This document shows, one piece after another, positions 5,329 to 29,424 of a stretch of DNA of 33,646 bases. The position numbers and the translations under genes were made by a program. The stretch is taken from positions 1-33,646 of IMG/VR virus record IMGVR_UViG_3300020044_007582. The stretch is one strand, 5' to 3'. The DNA comes from a virus (Duplodnaviria; Caudoviricetes). The first letter of the stretch is position 1; every line of letters starts with the position of its first letter. The notes beneath the pieces are model-generated. The model did not search any database. It saw nothing but the letters and a program-made list of their open reading frames with translations, and was not told where the DNA came from.

Positions 5329-6926
5329 TGCGACCCAAAAAGCCGAATAAGCCTGCCATTCCGCAGGTGAAGAAACCCAAGACGCCGAAGGTGGCCGCTT
5401 CGCCGGCTCCGCAGAAGCAGGCGTCTGGTGGCGGCTCTGGTCCGGGCATCTTCTCCAATTTCGAGTCCGCCAAGTTCAGCAACAAGCGTTCTTGGATTTG
5501 GTCGTCTTGGCCGCAGGACTTCAAGAAGACCATGACGGTCTTCGACCGCATGGAGACCACGCGCAAGATGCGCTGGTTGGAACTCAATGCGGGTCTGATT
5601 CGTCAGGTGCTGTCGGACATGGCCTTGTACACGGTCGGCTCGGGTATCAAGCCCCAGGCACAGTCGGGCGACGAGATGTGGGACGACGCCGCCGAGGCGT
5701 ACTTCAAGCAATGGGGTTCCCGCGCCTGCGATATCACCGGCCGCTTCTCGTTCTTTGAACTCCAGCACATCTGCTGCCGCCTGATGGACCGTGACGGCGA
5801 GTGCTTCATCATCAAGACCCGTGGCCCCGGCGGCGAACCCCGCCTTCAGGTCATCGAAAGCCACCGGGTCGGTAACTCGTCGAATAACGAAGTCCCGCCG
5901 GGGATGGTTGACGGGATACTTTTTGGGCCGTATGGTCAGCCGATTTCATATAATGTCATTCGGTCGGATGGGTCTTCCCGTCTCGTCCCGGCCAATGCGG
6001 TCCTCCACTTGTACGAACCCGAACTGGCTTCGGGTGCCCGTGCCTACAGCCCCCTCCAGCACTCGATCAACAACTTGGTCGATATGCTGGAAATCCTGTC
6101 CCTCGAAAAGCTCGCCGTGAAGACGGCGTCGGATATCACGCGCACGATCACCCGTGAGAACCCGAACTTCGACGGAACCCAGTCCGATTTCGAGGCGTTC
6201 GGTATGCGTCCGCAGGACTACGGCGACGGCATGACCGACCCGAGCGAGGCTTCGACGTTCCTCGGCGGCAAGGTGCTGGCTTTGGCCCCAGGCGAACGCC
6301 TGGAGTCCTTTGAGTCGAACCGCCCGAACAAGACCTTCGACGGCTTCATCGAACACCTTGAGCGTGACTCGCTGGCGGGTATGCTCCCGTACGAATTCAG
6401 CGCGAACCCGACGAAGGCCGGCGGCGCTGTCATGCGTTTCGTGGTGGCCAAGGCCGACCGCAAGTTCTCCCATCGCCAGCAGGTGATGGTTCAGCGTTTC
6501 CTCACACCCGTCTGGGGCTATGTCATCGGCTGCGCGATCAAGGACGGCCTGCTCCGCTCGACCGAAGCCTGGACGAACGTCACTTGGACGACCCCCCGCA
6601 AGGTCACCGTCGACGCCGGCCGTGACGCCCAGCAGAACCGTCAGGATATCGAGTCTGGCCTCAAGACGCTCACCGAGAACTATCTGGAAGAAGGCCAAGA
6701 CCCGAAGGAACAGATGCGAGCCAACGCCGCCGAGAAGCGGTACCTGCTCGACCTGTCCAAGGAGTTCGACGTGCCGCTGTCCATGCTCTACAAGCCCCAG
6801 AACGTCGCCCCTGCGGATATCAACGCCTCGGTCGGCGAAGAGCAGAAAAAGACGTTCATGGACGACGGCGACAAGGTCGTGGTCGATGACGTCGACCCGG
6901 ACGACGAAGAAACTTCCAAAGAATAA
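5328..6926 (+). CDS. Portal protein, lambda family
   Basis: 532 aa; VGSGIKPQ, DGECFI, LQVIESHR, DGILFGPYGQP, LAPGE, WTTP..VD motifs; synteny. Confidence 0.92.
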   Translation: MRPKKPNKPAIPQVKKPKTPKVAASPAPQKQASGGGSGPGIFSNFESAKFSNKRSWIWSSWPQDFKKTMTVFDRMETTRKMRWLELNAGLIRQVLSDMALYTVGSGIKPQAQSGDEMWDDAAEAYFKQWGSRACDITGRFSFFELQHICCRLMDRDGECFIIKTRGPGGEPRLQVIESHRVGNSSNNEVPPGMVDGILFGPYGQPISYNVIRSDGSSRLVPANAVLHLYEPELASGARAYSPLQHSINNLVDMLEILSLEKLAVKTASDITRTITRENPNFDGTQSDFEAFGMRPQDYGDGMTDPSEASTFLGGKVLALAPGERLESFESNRPNKTFDGFIEHLERDSLAGMLPYEFSANPTKAGGAVMRFVVAKADRKFSHRQQVMVQRFLTPVWGYVIGCAIKDGLLRSTEAWTNVTWTTPRKVTVDAGRDAQQNRQDIESGLKTLTENYLEEGQDPKEQMRANAAEKRYLLDLSKEFDVPLSMLYKPQNVAPADINASVGEEQKKTFMDDGDKVVVDDVDPDDEETSKE

Positions 6927-6929
6927 CCA

Positions 6930-8000
6930 ATGTATTCCCTTTCCAACGCTTTCAAGACCTACGCGCCGATCCTCATCGAGCCGGCGAAGGCCAAGGCTTA
7001 CCTCGACAAGGTGGCCGAATTCTCCCCGACCGACCTGAAGGCGAACGGAGATATCGAGGAGATGATGACCATGCTCTTCGGCCCCCGCCCGATGCTGGTC
7101 AAGTCTGGCGACTTGGCGATCATCCCGGTGCGCGGGGTAATCGGTGCCGGCCTGACCGAGCTGGAAAAGATGATGGGTGCCACGGACGTCGAAGACGTCG
7201 AGGAGATGCTGGAAGAGGCCCATCGTGACCCCGAGGTCGAGGTGATCATCTTCGACTTCGACTCGCCTGGTGGCACCGTGACAGGCGTCCCCGAACTCGC
7301 CGCCCGTATCCGCGCCTGCGAGAAGCGTACCGTCGGCTGGACCTGCAAGCAGTCCTGCTCGGCTTCCATGTGGCTGATGAGCCAATGCGACGAGGTCTAT
7401 GTCAGCCCGTCCTCCGTGGTCGGCTCCATCGGCGTCTACATCCCGATCTACGACATGAAGGCGGCTTACGCCGAGGAAGGCATCAGCGTCGACCTCATCA
7501 AGGCCGGCTGGGCGAAGGGGGCTGGCTTTGCCGGCACGTCGATGACCCCCGAGCAGCGTAAACTTTTCCAAGACGACGTCGACGAGACCCACAAGTGGTT
7601 CATCGGTGACGTCAAGACCGTCCGCTCCTACGCCGACGAAGCCGATATGCAGGGTCAATGCTGGTCCGGCAAGAAAGCCGCCGAGAAGGGGCTAGTCTCC
7701 GGCCTCCTGAACACCTTTGACGACCTCCTGATGGCCATCTCCCCCGAGGAGTACGCCAAGTACGAACGTGCGGAGAAGCAGGTGCCGTCGACCGGCCCCG
7801 CCGGCTACGCCCAGGCGGCTGACGTCTCGCCCGAGCAGGGTGACGACGAAGACGGCGTCGCGCCGATCTCGGACGACAAGAAGAAGAAAAAGAAAAAGAA
7901 GAAGCCCGACGGTACGGACTCCGACGAGGACGAGGACGAAGCGGACATTCCCGATGAGGGATGCCCCCCCGTCGACACCGACTGCAAGCCCAAGGCTTGA
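6930..8000 (+). CDS. Prohead maturation protease, S49 (SppA / lambda gpC) family
   Basis: DSPGG, CSASMWLMSQCD (catalytic Ser), VGSIGV, AGWAK; low-complexity charged tail. Confidence 0.92.
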   Translation: MYSLSNAFKTYAPILIEPAKAKAYLDKVAEFSPTDLKANGDIEEMMTMLFGPRPMLVKSGDLAIIPVRGVIGAGLTELEKMMGATDVEDVEEMLEEAHRDPEVEVIIFDFDSPGGTVTGVPELAARIRACEKRTVGWTCKQSCSASMWLMSQCDEVYVSPSSVVGSIGVYIPIYDMKAAYAEEGISVDLIKAGWAKGAGFAGTSMTPEQRKLFQDDVDETHKWFIGDVKTVRSYADEADMQGQCWSGKKAAEKGLVSGLLNTFDDLLMAISPEEYAKYERAEKQVPSTGPAGYAQAADVSPEQGDDEDGVAPISDDKKKKKKKKKPDGTDSDEDEDEADIPDEGCPPVDTDCKPKA

Positions 8001-21854: not shown

Positions 21855-22145
21855 TTATTTCCGCTTACGCAATCTTTTAAGGAAGCTCGGGACGTACTCT
21901 TTCCATTCGTATTTTTGGGCGTAACTGACCTTGAACGTCGGTGCGTTGTCGCAGGTCAGGCCGACGACGTTGAAGTTGATCCACTCCGCGCTGTCCTCTT
22001 CAGACTCGTTCATGTACCGCATATGCACCTGGATAAGGCGGTAGTAAGAATAAATCAGGAAGCCGTCCTTCGACGTCCCGATGATTGCGTCATCGAACCA
22101 TTCGGCCGGCTCGATGCGGATTGCGTCAGCGTGATACTTTGCCAT
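21855..22145 (-). CDS. Hypothetical phage protein
   Basis: FDDAIIG...YSY...EWINFNVVG pattern; overlaps the MTase end. Confidence 0.65.
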   Translation of the reverse strand: MAKYHADAIRIEPAEWFDDAIIGTSKDGFLIYSYYRLIQVHMRYMNESEEDSAEWINFNVVGLTCDNAPTFKVSYAQKYEWKEYVPSFLKRLRKRK

Positions 22146-23202
22146 GGATGAAATTGATGCGTTCGCCGATCCAGCGCATGACAGGTACGGCCATGGAATT
22201 GCCGCAGGCGTGGTAGCGTGGGGAGTCGGAACACTCTTCCTCCGGCTTGCCCTTGTAAGGGATGCGAGACCAGTTGTCAGGAAAGCCCATCAGACGCTCG
22301 ACCTCGACGACGCTCAAGCGACGTACGACCGACGGAGGGATGGCCACATGGGCGTTCTGATCTCCGCTGTCCGTTGAAACCGTCGGGAAGAATTCGTAGG
22401 AGGGATTGGCACCGCCCTGCCGGCGGAGGTTACCAGGCTGGAAGGCAATGGCGTGGGTCGAACGGATATCGCCGGTGAGATCAAACGTGTTCAGGCAATT
22501 GGCGAAGTCGGCCTTCACCCATGTCTCGTAGTCTTCCTTGCTTTGTGCGCGGCGTGACTTGCGGTACGGGATCATCCCTTGTTCGCCGCATTCGTCAGAG
22601 CGATCAGCAGGGGCTTCGGCAGCATCTTCCCCCTCCTCGTCGACCTTTCGAGGATTCCCTTGCAGCATTCCGCGCTCAAACAATACCGCAGCAGGTGGTC
22701 GCCAGTCTCCAAGATATCCGACAAGGAAGACTCTCTTACGACGCTGGGGAAGTCCGAAGCCGTTGCAGTCGAGCTGCCTCCATGCACAACTATACCCGAG
22801 GTCAGCCAGCGACCTTTGGAAGGCGGCAAAATCGAGTCCCCCGCCGCTGGATAGAACGCCCGGGACGTTTTCCCAGACAATCCAGCGCGGTCGAAGGCGT
22901 CCAGCCAGTCCTGCAAATGCAAGGGCGAGTTGACCACGGAGGTCATCCATTCCTCCTCGCTTGCCTCCGATTGAGAAAGACTGGCAGGGGGTTCCGCCGA
23001 CCAGAAGGTCAACTGATCCGGGTTCGATGGGCCATTCGGCGTGTCGGGTGAGGTCTCCATAATTGGGTACGTTGGGGAATCGGTGTTTGAGGATGGCTGA
23101 TGGGAAAGGTTCGATCTCGGAAAAGCCTACCGGCGTCCAGCCGAGCGGCTCCCAGGCGACGCTGGCGGCTTCCATGCCGGAACAGACGGAAAGGTATTTC
23201 AT
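22126..23202 (-). CDS. dcm: DNA (cytosine-5) methyltransferase
   Basis: Motif I SVCSGME, IV GGTPCQSFS, VI WENVPG, VIII PQRRKRVF, IX ERLMGFPD, X GNSMAV. Confidence 0.93.
   Translation of the reverse strand: MKYLSVCSGMEAASVAWEPLGWTPVGFSEIEPFPSAILKHRFPNVPNYGDLTRHAEWPIEPGSVDLLVGGTPCQSFSIGGKRGGMDDLRGQLALAFAGLAGRLRPRWIVWENVPGVLSSGGGLDFAAFQRSLADLGYSCAWRQLDCNGFGLPQRRKRVFLVGYLGDWRPPAAVLFERGMLQGNPRKVDEEGEDAAEAPADRSDECGEQGMIPYRKSRRAQSKEDYETWVKADFANCLNTFDLTGDIRSTHAIAFQPGNLRRQGGANPSYEFFPTVSTDSGDQNAHVAIPPSVVRRLSVVEVERLMGFPDNWSRIPYKGKPEEECSDSPRYHACGNSMAVPVMRWIGERINFIHGKVSR
22572..23060 (-). CDS. Nested +1-frame ORF in the MTase (beta-subunit-like)
   Basis: 162-aa ATG ORF with a C/A-rich leader; C-terminus SSLSDILE..YCLS..CKGILERS.RRGK.LP..L..AL. 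Confidence 0.6.
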   Translation of the reverse strand: METSPDTPNGPSNPDQLTFWSAEPPASLSQSEASEEEWMTSVVNSPLHLQDWLDAFDRAGLSGKTSRAFYPAAGDSILPPSKGRWLTSGIVVHGGSSTATASDFPSVVRESSLSDILETGDHLLRYCLSAECCKGILERSTRRGKMLPKPLLIALTNAANKG

Positions 23203-23822
23203 AGAATTCCCCATTGGTTGGCCATGGCGTCGGCGACGCCTTGGAATGTTTTCGACCTGTACTTCATGCGTTCAAGCGGCTTCATCCTCATGGACTCGAC
23301 GTGCCAGATAGGATCCTTACGTCCGTCCTTGTAAGTATAGAATTGCGGCTCGACAATTTTTGTCGGGGTAAGTTCTGGCAAATTCTTCAACCAAAGTCCG
23401 GTCTTCTTGCTATGCGGATCACCGAACTGCCAAGGCTGAATATACTGCGTCGGCTTACGGTATACGCTGGAAAGAATGCCGACAGGATTTTCCAGGCAGA
23501 TGCGCGGAATGTTGCATTCAAACATCGCCTTGAAAAAAGCGATGGCGTCTTCGCGCTGCTGATGACGGTCAGGAAACCTGTCCTTGAATTCAGGCTTGAA
23601 CCACTTGTTGCCAGTAACAGTCAGGTAGGTGCATGGCGGATGACCGATCATTAGATCCCATCCGTTGCTGTTGCGAGCGTCGATGACGTCGAACACGCTT
23701 CCTTGGTAGTGCGGGCCTGGCACGTCCGTCGGAAGCAGGTCGCACGAAATAGCTTCATGGCCTGCCTTGATGAAGGCATCTCGCACCGTACCAGAATATT
23801 CGCAGGCAATTAGGATTTTCAT
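23199..23822 (-). CDS. Short C5-methyltransferase-like protein
   Basis: ILIACEYSG, SCDLLP, HPPCTYL (catalytic PC), LENPVG, QPWQFG, RSKTFQG.ADAMA.QWG. Confidence 0.8.
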   Translation of the reverse strand: MKILIACEYSGTVRDAFIKAGHEAISCDLLPTDVPGPHYQGSVFDVIDARNSNGWDLMIGHPPCTYLTVTGNKWFKPEFKDRFPDRHQQREDAIAFFKAMFECNIPRICLENPVGILSSVYRKPTQYIQPWQFGDPHSKKTGLWLKNLPELTPTKIVEPQFYTYKDGRKDPIWHVESMRMKPLERMKYRSKTFQGVADAMANQWGIL

Positions 23823-26574: not shown

Positions 26575-28051
26575 AGTTATCGAAAATGCGGCCGTAAATC
26601 TTTTGCAGGGGTGACTTGGGCTTGGACGCCTTTTGCATCCGCCAATCGGAGCCGATGGCCTTCGACGCCGAATCCTTGGACAGACGCTCGGCACCGCGCA
26701 CCCCGAACTGCTGGAGCTTGCGGACCTGCTTGACGGTGGCCAGATTAAGGGCTTCCCGTGCCTTCAGACGGGCGATCATCCATTCGGCTTGGTCAGAGGT
26801 CAGGCCACGGGCGTGGACGCCGTAGGAGGCCAGCGCGGTGGTCTGGTAGACGAACATGGGGGAGTCCGAGGTAGCAGCCGGGACGACGAACCCGAAGACG
26901 GCACAGGCGACGGACAGGTCGACCAGCCCCAGTTCCTTGGCCTCCTTGGTGGCCGACCGCTGCTCTTCGGCGGCAATCCGGCGAAGCATGGTTTCTTCGG
27001 CGTGGCGGTCGCAGGCGTCGGCGGCGTCGAGCGGGTCATGCGACCCTTCGATGACGGGAGCCTTGGCTTGGGGGTGGACGGTGAAGGCGTCGGCCGGCGT
27101 GAAGGAATTCTCCCCGCTGATCCACATGGGGTCGAGGATGAGGCAATCGGTCTTGCCCGGAGCCGTGCGGAGGCCACGGCCGATCATCTGGCACCAGAGG
27201 GCACGGGACTGGGTCGGGCGAAGGAGAATGACGCAATCGGTTTCCGGGGCGTCGAAGCCTTCGGTGAAGAGGTTGACGTTGCACAGGACGCGCAGCTCGC
27301 CCCGCTTGAACGCTTCGACGGTGCCGGCACGGAACTTGCCCGTGCTGCCGTCGGCGTGGCCGGCTTCTACGCCGCGCTGGCGGAGCAGGGCGACCAGGCG
27401 GACGGACGTGTCGACCTCCGGCAGGAAGGCAATGGCCTTCTTGCGGTCCCAGCGGTTCAGTTCGGTGACGATGCTGTCGGCCACGGCTTCAAGGGCGTCC
27501 TCGTAACCGCGCATACGGATCAGGCTCATCTCGACCGGCATCTTCTGGGCCATGGGGCGGACGAGGTGACCCTGCTCGATAAGGGTGCGGATGGCGATCT
27601 CGTAGGCCGGCACGAAGCCGACCGTCTCAAGTTTCTGGCGGTCAAGTCGGTCAGGCGTGGCGGTAACGGCGACCTTCGGGCCGGTGAACACGGCGTTGAA
27701 CTTGGCCCACGAAGAGGCGACGGCATGGTGGGCTTCGTCAAAGACGACGAGAGCGGACGCCTTGTCTTCGGCGGAGATATGGTCGAAGTCGGCGGAGAAG
27801 ACGGAGAGGGCTTCGCCGACCACGCCGGCGCGGATCATCGTCGCAGCCGCCTGGTCGATGAGTTCCTTGCGGTGGGCGACGAAGAAACACTTGCGGGTCG
27901 AGCCAGCCTGCCAGCGGGTCATAATCGCCGAAGCGATCACGGTCTTGCCGGCACCCGTCGGAGCGATGACGAGCGGGTTGACGTTCTTGGAAAGGTGGGC
28001 CAGCGCGGAGGTCACGGCGGCTTCTTGATAGTCTCGGAGTTTGAGTTCCAT
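26564..28051 (-). CDS. Superfamily 2 DExH helicase
   Basis: LRDYQ, PTGAGKT, DEAHH, TATPDR, EGFDAP, QMIGRGLR. Confidence 0.93.
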   Translation of the reverse strand: MELKLRDYQEAAVTSALAHLSKNVNPLVIAPTGAGKTVIASAIMTRWQAGSTRKCFFVAHRKELIDQAAATMIRAGVVGEALSVFSADFDHISAEDKASALVVFDEAHHAVASSWAKFNAVFTGPKVAVTATPDRLDRQKLETVGFVPAYEIAIRTLIEQGHLVRPMAQKMPVEMSLIRMRGYEDALEAVADSIVTELNRWDRKKAIAFLPEVDTSVRLVALLRQRGVEAGHADGSTGKFRAGTVEAFKRGELRVLCNVNLFTEGFDAPETDCVILLRPTQSRALWCQMIGRGLRTAPGKTDCLILDPMWISGENSFTPADAFTVHPQAKAPVIEGSHDPLDAADACDRHAEETMLRRIAAEEQRSATKEAKELGLVDLSVACAVFGFVVPAATSDSPMFVYQTTALASYGVHARGLTSDQAEWMIARLKAREALNLATVKQVRKLQQFGVRGAERLSKDSASKAIGSDWRMQKASKPKSPLQKIYGRIFDNYGE

Positions 28052-28101
28052 GTGCGGGTGGCGTCTCCTGTTATTGACAGTCCCGTGAGTAACACAAGCA
28101 C

Positions 28102-28130
28102 AAAAAAGGAGGAACTTTCGTTCCCCCTTC
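28102..28130 (-). terminator. Rho-independent terminator after the SSB-like gene
   Basis: Minus strand reads GGGGGAAC-GAAA-GTTCCTCC-TTTTTT. Confidence 0.75.
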
Positions 28131-28150
28131 GGTACCGTCTAGACCCCCCT

Positions 28151-28600
28151 TTAGAAGGGGCCGATCACCGGGCCGTTGGGCAGGCGGGTGAAGAAGGACG
28201 CCTGGTAGGCCACCCCCTCCGTCCCGTCCTTCTTGGTGTACTTACGCTCGGTCACGCGCACCTTCAGGTTGCGACCCCTAGCACGGGCGAGGATACGCTC
28301 AAGGAAGGACTCGTCGACCTCCAGCTCGCCGCCGGCGACGTACTCCTTGATCTCCTCATCGGTGGCCGTGGCAGCAAGGAACTGCTCCAGGCGTTCGTGA
28401 CCGCCGTTCTTGTCCGGCTTGGCGAACAGGTCGCCGAAGACGGTCTCGCCCTCGTTCGTCACGAAGGTGATCCGGGCGTACAGGTCGGCGCGGGGCGGGA
28501 GGTAGTCCTGCTTCGACGCCTGCACGGTGGCGAGGTAGGTGCCGGCCTTGGAGACGTACTTACGGTCCTCGGCGGCGTTGGGATTGAACTTGAACGACAT
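28151..28600 (-). CDS. ssDNA-binding protein-like (DUF669-type OB fold)
   Basis: GTYLATV, KVRVTERKY..KDG and C-terminal PF; next to RecE/RecT. Confidence 0.6.
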   Translation of the reverse strand: MSFKFNPNAAEDRKYVSKAGTYLATVQASKQDYLPPRADLYARITFVTNEGETVFGDLFAKPDKNGGHERLEQFLAATATDEEIKEYVAGGELEVDESFLERILARARGRNLKVRVTERKYTKKDGTEGVAYQASFFTRLPNGPVIGPF

Positions 28601-28638
28601 GATGTTGTTGCTGGGTTGGGTTATGGGTTGATGGGAAA

Positions 28639-29424
28639 TTACTGCACCCACTTCGGGAGCGAGACGGTCTGCACTTCCTTCGGGTAGCCCGGGAACTGCT
28701 TGAACGTGTTGCAGGAGCGGAACAGGTCGATGGCGGAGTTCATCAGGGCGAGTCCCTTCTGTTTAGCCTCGGCGTCGAGGGCGTAGCAAGCCCATTCGTT
28801 CGGCGCGTCCTTCTCGACGGCGAGGATCACGAACTCATCGGCGTGGGCCAGCGTAGTGTACCACGCTGCCTGGAGGAAGTACTGGTAGTTGGCGATATCA
28901 CGGATGAACGGGGTGCCGGCGTCCATGGTCGTCTTCACGTCGACGACGATGCGTCGGCCGTCCTTCGTAGTGATGATGGCGTCGAGCCTGCCCTTGATAT
29001 CCGTGCCGTTAACACGGCCGACCATGGGGACTTCGGTGACCATGGATTCGCCGTCGTAGTCCTTCATCAGTTTATCGAGGCCGGCACGGGCGGCGATGGA
29101 CACGGCGGTGACCAGCTCGCCTTCCTTGGCGGTGATCGCTTCCTGACCAGGCTGAAGGCTGGACTGGAACGAGGCCCAGATTTCCTTGCCCTCCTTCGTG
29201 CGCTTGTCGCACTCCGGGGCCACGACGATGGTGGCGTCGAAGACCTTCGGCTGGAGCGAAGCGAGGTGGATCAGGGTGCCGAGCCGCTGGGCCGGCGTCT
29301 GCTCGCTGCGGTCACGGTTCAGGTACTCCTGAAAGTGCCGAGGGGACCGAAGCAGTTCCTTCGCGCCGCTCTGCGAGAGGCCGGGATGGTTGTTATATTC
29401 GTCGTCGGGGATGAGGTTGCTCAT
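28639..29424 (-). CDS. RecE / exonuclease VIII-like PD-(D/E)XK nuclease
   Basis: LSQSGAKEL..SP, GTLIH, KGRLD, DVKTT, YFLQAAWY, AVEK. Confidence 0.9.
   Translation of the reverse strand: MSNLIPDDEYNNHPGLSQSGAKELLRSPRHFQEYLNRDRSEQTPAQRLGTLIHLASLQPKVFDATIVVAPECDKRTKEGKEIWASFQSSLQPGQEAITAKEGELVTAVSIAARAGLDKLMKDYDGESMVTEVPMVGRVNGTDIKGRLDAIITTKDGRRIVVDVKTTMDAGTPFIRDIANYQYFLQAAWYTTLAHADEFVILAVEKDAPNEWACYALDAEAKQKGLALMNSAIDLFRSCNTFKQFPGYPKEVQTVSLPKWVQ

Follow-up and report, generated by a model that had tools for sequence, protein, structure and literature searches.

The window analysed here, a stretch of 33,646 nucleotides taken at its full length, is the 33.6 kb record of a tailed phage that is 93% complete and has a G+C content of about 59%. 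The plus strand carries genes for the terminase, a lambda-type portal, a protease and the capsid, and the minus strand carries genes for a helicase, an exonuclease, a metallophosphoesterase, a methyltransferase and a primase/helicase. Two long antisense open reading frames, 26633-28687 (plus strand, 684 aa) and 5946-7658 (minus strand, 570 aa), lie opposite the helicase and the portal/protease genes, and are probably shadows in G+C-rich DNA. The features of interest lie in the methyltransferase gene and are listed below.

22126..23214, minus strand: C5 cytosine methyltransferase, alpha chain, 362 aa, with motifs I-VIII, a variable region, and motifs IX and X
23061..23082, minus strand: leader preceding the nested ATG, poor in G and rich in C and A, with no Shine-Dalgarno sequence; also encodes FPNVPN of alpha
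22572..23060, minus strand: nested beta-like gene, 162 aa, ATG start, in the +1 frame inside the alpha gene
22972..22998, minus strand: alpha motif IV with the catalytic Pro76-Cys77, invariant in 67 alpha rows
22864..22872, minus strand: alpha motif VI, ENV 115-117; the +1 reading is the GKTS stretch of beta
22732..22746, minus strand: alpha motif VIII, Q157-x-R159-x-R161, from the alpha alignment
22674..22727, minus strand: beta core, residues 112-129, SLSDILE...YCLS; L113, L117 and L128 invariant in 69 rows
22578..22673, minus strand: beta C-terminal helix pair, residues 130-161, modelled as helices 130-143 and 149-161
22330..22572, minus strand: alpha variable region between motifs VIII and IX, residues ~215-295, candidate target-recognition domain
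22270..22326, minus strand: alpha motif IX, residues 297-315, in the main frame, from alignment with M.HhaI
22156..22227, minus strand: alpha motif X, residues 330-353, from alignment with M.HhaI

The longer chain, here called alpha, matches PF00145 (E 8e-49) over residues 5-353 and also matches TIGR00675. Its predicted model has the same fold as M.HhaI (Z 29.8); residues 195-214 and 238-281 are modelled with low confidence. Motifs I, IV (PC), VI (ENV), VIII (QxRxR), IX and X are all intact. The part containing IX and X aligns to M.HhaI 271-318 and, together with the Pfam span, bears out the preliminary description of this DNA, which had tentatively placed both motifs in the main frame. In C5 methyltransferases the region between motifs VIII and IX is responsible for target recognition. 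Among relatives of alpha this region shows low conservation and is highly variable in length. No restriction-enzyme partner was recognised among the neighbours of the alpha gene that were scanned with Pfam and PHROG. A second methyltransferase-like gene (23199-23822, minus strand) lies immediately upstream and shares 16 nt with the start of alpha; it contains an HPPC motif and matches PHROG 757 (E 2e-66), with no Pfam or NCBIfam match.

The nested open reading frame is located where the preliminary description put it, on the minus strand inside the C5 methyltransferase, with an ATG start and 162 codons. It begins 154 nt into the alpha reading frame and overlaps alpha residues 52-214, in a +1 frame that runs for 184 codons from stop to stop. 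Motifs IV-VIII, given earlier as its span, are indeed covered, but the true extent is somewhat wider, from YGD just past motif II to about 55 residues beyond motif VIII. The C/A-rich leader is also present as quoted and, like the leaders of several other genes of the phage, has no Shine-Dalgarno sequence; it is nevertheless weak evidence, because the same bases encode the conserved alpha residues FPNVPN. Many of the leaders at the 22 starts examined are G-poor, C/A-rich and without a Shine-Dalgarno sequence, which suggests a host that initiates without one.

The best conserved residues of the nested product, here called beta, are L113, S114, L117, E118, L128 and S129, and the C-terminal pattern SSLSDILE..YCLS of the preliminary description reads as quoted. 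An AlphaFold model of beta alone has a mean pLDDT of 60 and a pTM of 0.29, and is confident only over about residues 121-160 (pLDDT ~94 over residues 131-160). No PDB entry matched the model in Foldseek at E 0.001, solved structures searched by sequence returned chance rows only, Pfam and NCBIfam gave no match, and the ESM Atlas gave unnamed clusters only. Beta does match the PHROG family phrog_16143 (E 2.6e-5), and of the 102 members of the beta alignment 86 match PHROG 16143, with a best E of 8e-41.

The open frame of a single window proves little, because the 162 codons stay open in 16% of 20,000 trials of synonymous resampling under the codon usage of the window (P 0.16), and because the terminase gene of the same phage contains a longer open +1 stretch, of 217 codons. 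Relatives were considered as a set, namely the best 80 of 594 viral loci, picked with alpha alone. In this set chance falls far short of explaining the open frame. In all 80 of these the +1 frame is open for 143-276 codons around motif VI, and frequent stops among homologs are thus not seen; the +2 frame is open for at least 100 codons in 3 of the same 80. De-replication at 90% nucleotide identity leaves 35 non-redundant loci, and in all 35 no +1 stop occurs over the span that starts 40 codons ahead of motif VI and ends 30 codons past motif VIII; the codon usage of the individual loci predicts 0.55 such cases, the loci being related by descent and so not 35 independent trials. Over the same +1 region, 25 out of 25 ordinary methyltransferases, drawn from a sample of 401 genomes, carry 2-11 stops. 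Larger sets give 358/359 and 86/90 for the +1 frame, both counts being biased because queries containing beta fetched many of the loci and the 90 had been prefiltered for a long open frame.

Synonymous variation is suppressed in the overlap, the test that the preliminary description had proposed. Along the overlap, identity at fourfold-degenerate sites rises through 0.41, 0.68 and 0.76, as against 0.27 on either side, where these sites are saturated. At codons +70 to +85 from motif VI, which encode part of the C-terminal helix pair of beta, amino-acid identity is 0.79 in the +1 frame, 0.32 in the main frame and 0.31 in the +2 frame, and identity at main-frame codon positions 1, 2 and 3 is 0.40, 0.69 and 0.84. 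This is the pattern of a protein read in +1, and in this stretch the nested protein is therefore the conserved one, with alpha passing through as a linker. Upstream of motif VI the +1 identity (0.34-0.37) is near the background of 0.30, so that the N-terminal part of beta is weakly constrained; moreover, the N-terminal two thirds of beta largely mirrors conserved alpha motifs, and its conservation is in part borrowed from them. The nested open reading frame is a conserved gene under purifying selection. RNA runs contain at most 0.15 of the sequence words, and cannot reveal the translated frame.

The location of the beta core relative to single-chain enzymes was analysed by three routes. A profile of the core scores at least 5 bits in the main frame just past motif VIII in 6 of 27 other methyltransferases (best 22.5 bits, in L382) and below 5 bits in the remaining 21; 2 of 1,080 shuffles reached at least 5 bits, as did 1 of the 90 alphas from the window's own family. 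The L382 segment aligns with about residues 190-209 of M.HhaI, in a numbering counted from the alignment. Comparison of the core with the single-chain segment by hhalign gives 61% over 20 columns, a short, weak link. Finally, when PF00145 is applied to the two-chain locus L406, alpha corresponds to profile positions 2-169 and beta to those from 173 on (E 0.081). All three routes agree on a position after motif VIII, though the signal is short and modest. The best reading of these comparisons is that the beta core is homologous to the segment that follows motif VIII in ordinary C5 methyltransferases, around M.HhaI 190-209, and they suggest that this hinge segment is absent, in frame, from the alpha of the window's family. 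In M.HhaI, residues 190-209 link the large and small domains and pack near motif IX.

We propose, with a probability of roughly 0.7, that the nested product is a separately translated small subunit, made by internal initiation, which binds alpha, supplies the hinge and is needed for activity. One mRNA would give both alpha and beta. Alpha would provide catalysis (motifs I-VIII and X) together with motif IX and the variable region for target recognition, and would cross the stretch encoding the beta tail as a loosely constrained linker. The LSDIL helix and Y-x-L-S strand of beta would lie against the small domain and motif IX, in the manner of M.HhaI 190-209. Deprived of beta, the enzyme would have little or no activity, as is the case for the alpha chain of M.EcoHK31I. 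On the other side, alpha might be active without beta, because all ten motifs are present and it folds like M.HhaI by itself. Orphan methyltransferases of phages protect DNA from host restriction, and the phage would most likely use the enzyme in this way, shielding its own DNA. The probable origin of the arrangement is a single-chain ancestor whose frame slipped past motif VIII, and later slips would have shifted IX and X between the chains.

Several other explanations have to be weighed. Beta could be a real protein that acts as a regulator (an inhibitor, timer or stabiliser) of a self-sufficient alpha, given that alpha keeps all its motifs and a candidate recognition region and models well alone, and that separate initiation would permit separate control. 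We consider this unlikely: the beta core resembles a structural segment of single-chain enzymes that is missing in alpha, one lineage has beta joined to alpha and others have it joined to IX-X, and the homologous beta of EcoHK31I is required for activity, according to passages of PMC2836561.

The +1 frame might also be used by programmed frameshifting, with ribosomes either leaving alpha for the core once past motif VIII, or starting in beta and returning to the alpha frame beyond the core. The core does sit at the point where a single-chain enzyme continues, and beta core, IX and X are joined in one frame in 28 of 42 long matches. Against this, the frame is open for ~100 codons upstream of the core. 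In addition, a start codon occurs at one of five positions in the zone from -63 to -50 codons relative to motif VI in 35 of 36 representatives, all except L078 (32 ATG, 2 GTG and 1 TTG). In 25 of the 36 the +1 frame closes at -57 to -60, just upstream of the start. All ten representatives that are open at -63 use TAT there, which creates the ATG, as compared with 45 TAT and 121 TAC downstream, and AGGAG is found upstream of several of the -50 and -51 starts. Homopolymer runs of at least 6 are absent between ENV+25 and +60 in all 36 representatives, and -1 slippery heptamers occur at 5/36 and 12/90 loci and are of mixed kinds, so that scans of the 36 and 90 loci for two common site types found no conserved shift site. 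A shift from alpha into beta would, moreover, yield a product without IX and X. Frameshifting is accordingly improbable, and the start zone together with the lack of a conserved shift site favours internal initiation, by which, we infer, both chains would be made from a single mRNA.

Target recognition by beta, a role suggested in the preliminary description, appears just as improbable. The basic C-terminal helix of beta (ERSTRRGK) could touch the DNA backbone, and the sister loci L398 and L404 have long, variable betas that end in IX. However, the conserved part of the window's beta maps to the hinge, upstream of the recognition region, and it is the VIII-IX region of alpha that varies instead. 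The beta stop is constant, at +97 to +116 codons from motif VI, and beta keeps its length and sequence across widely differing alpha variable regions, whereas the distance from VI to IX in alpha ranges from 95 to 389 codons; target recognition is therefore better placed in the alpha variable region.

A shadow of the main frame, or a conserved RNA or DNA element from which no protein is made, would fit the single-window P of 0.16 and the fact that the beta profile also matches the +1 shadow of ordinary methyltransferases (E 1e-7 to 1e-16), but is very improbable in view of the 2-11 stops that those shadows carry, the codon-position pattern at +70 to +85, and a fused copy that keeps the core outside any overlap.

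The layout of the window, with a nested +1 gene over motifs IV-VIII and with IX and X in alpha, is found at 77 of the best 80 of the 594 loci. Of the other three, two are cut by the end of the locus and one has IX-X in a third reading frame. Mycobacteriophage Omega (gp127-gp128, L081:1691-2995) apparently has three pieces: motifs I-VIII lie on alpha, a nested beta of 157 aa is unannotated, and IX and X belong to a gene of their own. Some of the long matches in which core, IX and X are joined may be assembly slips or pseudogenes; 14 of the 15 members of the P0112 cluster share the length of the joined form, and L176 and L250 show it in the DNA. In P0105 and P0334, which represent one lineage, a non-overlapping beta is fused in frame to the C-terminus of a complete alpha; among the matches listed in a metagenome scan for the DNA of P0105 there was one locus, an unrelated one. 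A permuted arrangement, in which motif I follows IX and X, was observed in L173, L187 and protein P0104; L173 has three reading frames, containing IV-VIII, the beta core and IX-X-I. The sister methyltransferases L398, L404 and L380 also have an open +1 frame, with a beta that ends in a motif IX-like segment and an alpha that keeps I-VIII and X; in L398 and L404 the long, variable betas have WPTP repeats in place of the LSDIL core. These are possibly PHROG 1008. A tree of motifs I-VIII places the IX-bearing L379 among core-only members with support of 88-92, this being a quick-mode tree whose support is insufficient to order the moves of IX and X.

A full profile search for the beta family gave 6,435 clusters at E 0.001, the weak end of which may include shadows and sister families, and 1,156 at 1e-30. 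By tblastn, up to 188 phage records and 541 plasmid records contain relatives beneath a gene annotated as a methyltransferase. Of the plasmid records 449 are from Escherichia, mostly under a Dam-family annotation like that of dmt of phage P1. In P1 dmt itself there is an unannotated +1 reading frame of 162 aa with the beta core (L372:11714-12202, NC_005856 about 66713-67201). The nested gene is also unannotated in Omega, DMCA, Javan8 and Vibrio phage 1.033.O. Of P1 Dmt, RefSeq notes no more than that it 'perhaps' methylates C5 cytosine. Our literature search, which did not extend to the primary papers, found no paper on the breadth of the layout or on the nested gene in P1 dmt.

It may be that a beta confined to the hinge is shared as a core by a very large family of two-chain phage methyltransferases, thousands of whose genes, P1 dmt included, pass in annotation for single proteins, and in which the hinge is obligatory and IX is not, IX and X hop between frames, M.EcoHK31I is one derived case, and the C5 domain of P1 Dmt needs its nested partner of 162 aa. 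We regard this wider reading as an even bet. If the subunit reading proposed above holds, a layout held to be exceptional among C5 methyltransferases is in fact widespread in phages and prophages, where annotation misses it, and the role of the small chain would be revised from motif IX to the hinge. With beta as a needed hinge chain, many methyltransferases annotated as single would be two-chain enzymes, and gene synthesis with optimised codons, which destroys beta, could give falsely inactive enzymes. The region would also offer a long natural example of dual coding, and enzyme engineering could make use of its natural split point. In a laboratory phage, the nested gene makes the question of C5 methylation by P1 Dmt directly testable.

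The layout itself is already known: it is annotated in Streptococcus phage MM1 and is proven, with another split, in M.EcoHK31I. In M.HhaI and other single-chain C5 methyltransferases the segment after motif VIII is in frame and the +1 frame is closed, unlike in the window. A natural split after VIII occurs in the two-chain C5 methyltransferase M.AquI, as described in passages of PMC3404938. L176, L250 and the P0112 cluster, rare relatives in the family, resemble M.AquI in that their second chain carries core, IX and X; unlike in M.AquI, the window has IX and X on alpha and a second gene that is fully nested.

The M.EcoHK31I enzyme of E. coli (YGGCCR) has its beta encoded wholly inside the alpha gene in a different frame, with motifs I-VIII and X on alpha and IX on beta (passages of PMC2836561 and PMC3404938). 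EcoHK31I alpha from which the beta starts had been removed gave no methylation, and co-expression brought activity back (passages of PMC2836561). The window resembles M.EcoHK31I in that its second chain also lies wholly within the alpha gene in an alternative frame; it differs in that IX is on alpha, and beta ends after the core and the helix pair. None of 36 and 90 betas scored above 8 bits with a motif IX profile, compared with 32.2 bits for the L406 beta as positive control. The kinship to M.EcoHK31I-type beta chains expected in the preliminary description is borne out by hhalign, which aligns the window's beta family with the beta of locus L379 at 99.3% (E 1e-20, 119 columns), a locus of the EcoHK31I type and not the named enzyme. 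L379/L406 has the same split of motifs as EcoHK31I, with an alpha lacking IX and a beta ending in IX. We take L379 to be close in sequence to M.EcoHK31I; the names M.EcoHK31I and M.EaeI are absent among the matches listed in the plasmid and phage tblastn and the protein searches. The EcoHK31I-type locus L406:5580-7397 also contains a convergent gene of 302 aa with no Pfam family, which is a candidate restriction endonuclease. That the two chains of the window would work together as those of M.EcoHK31I do is proposed by analogy.

In phage MM1 (NC_003050), RefSeq annotates ORF14 within ORF13 (NP_150145, NP_150146), in the +1 frame as here. A passage in a review (PMC8637289) describes the MM1 methyltransferase as putative, and no functional test of it turned up in the passages searched. 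ORF14 is homologous to the window's beta (98.9%) and matches the PHROG 16143 profile with E 5e-82. ORF13 keeps IX and X, as does the window's alpha, and ORF14 stops after the core, without the last helix pair that the window's beta has. Judged by these alignments, the nested chain of the window is of the MM1 ORF14 kind, and lacks the motif IX that marks a beta of the EcoHK31I type.
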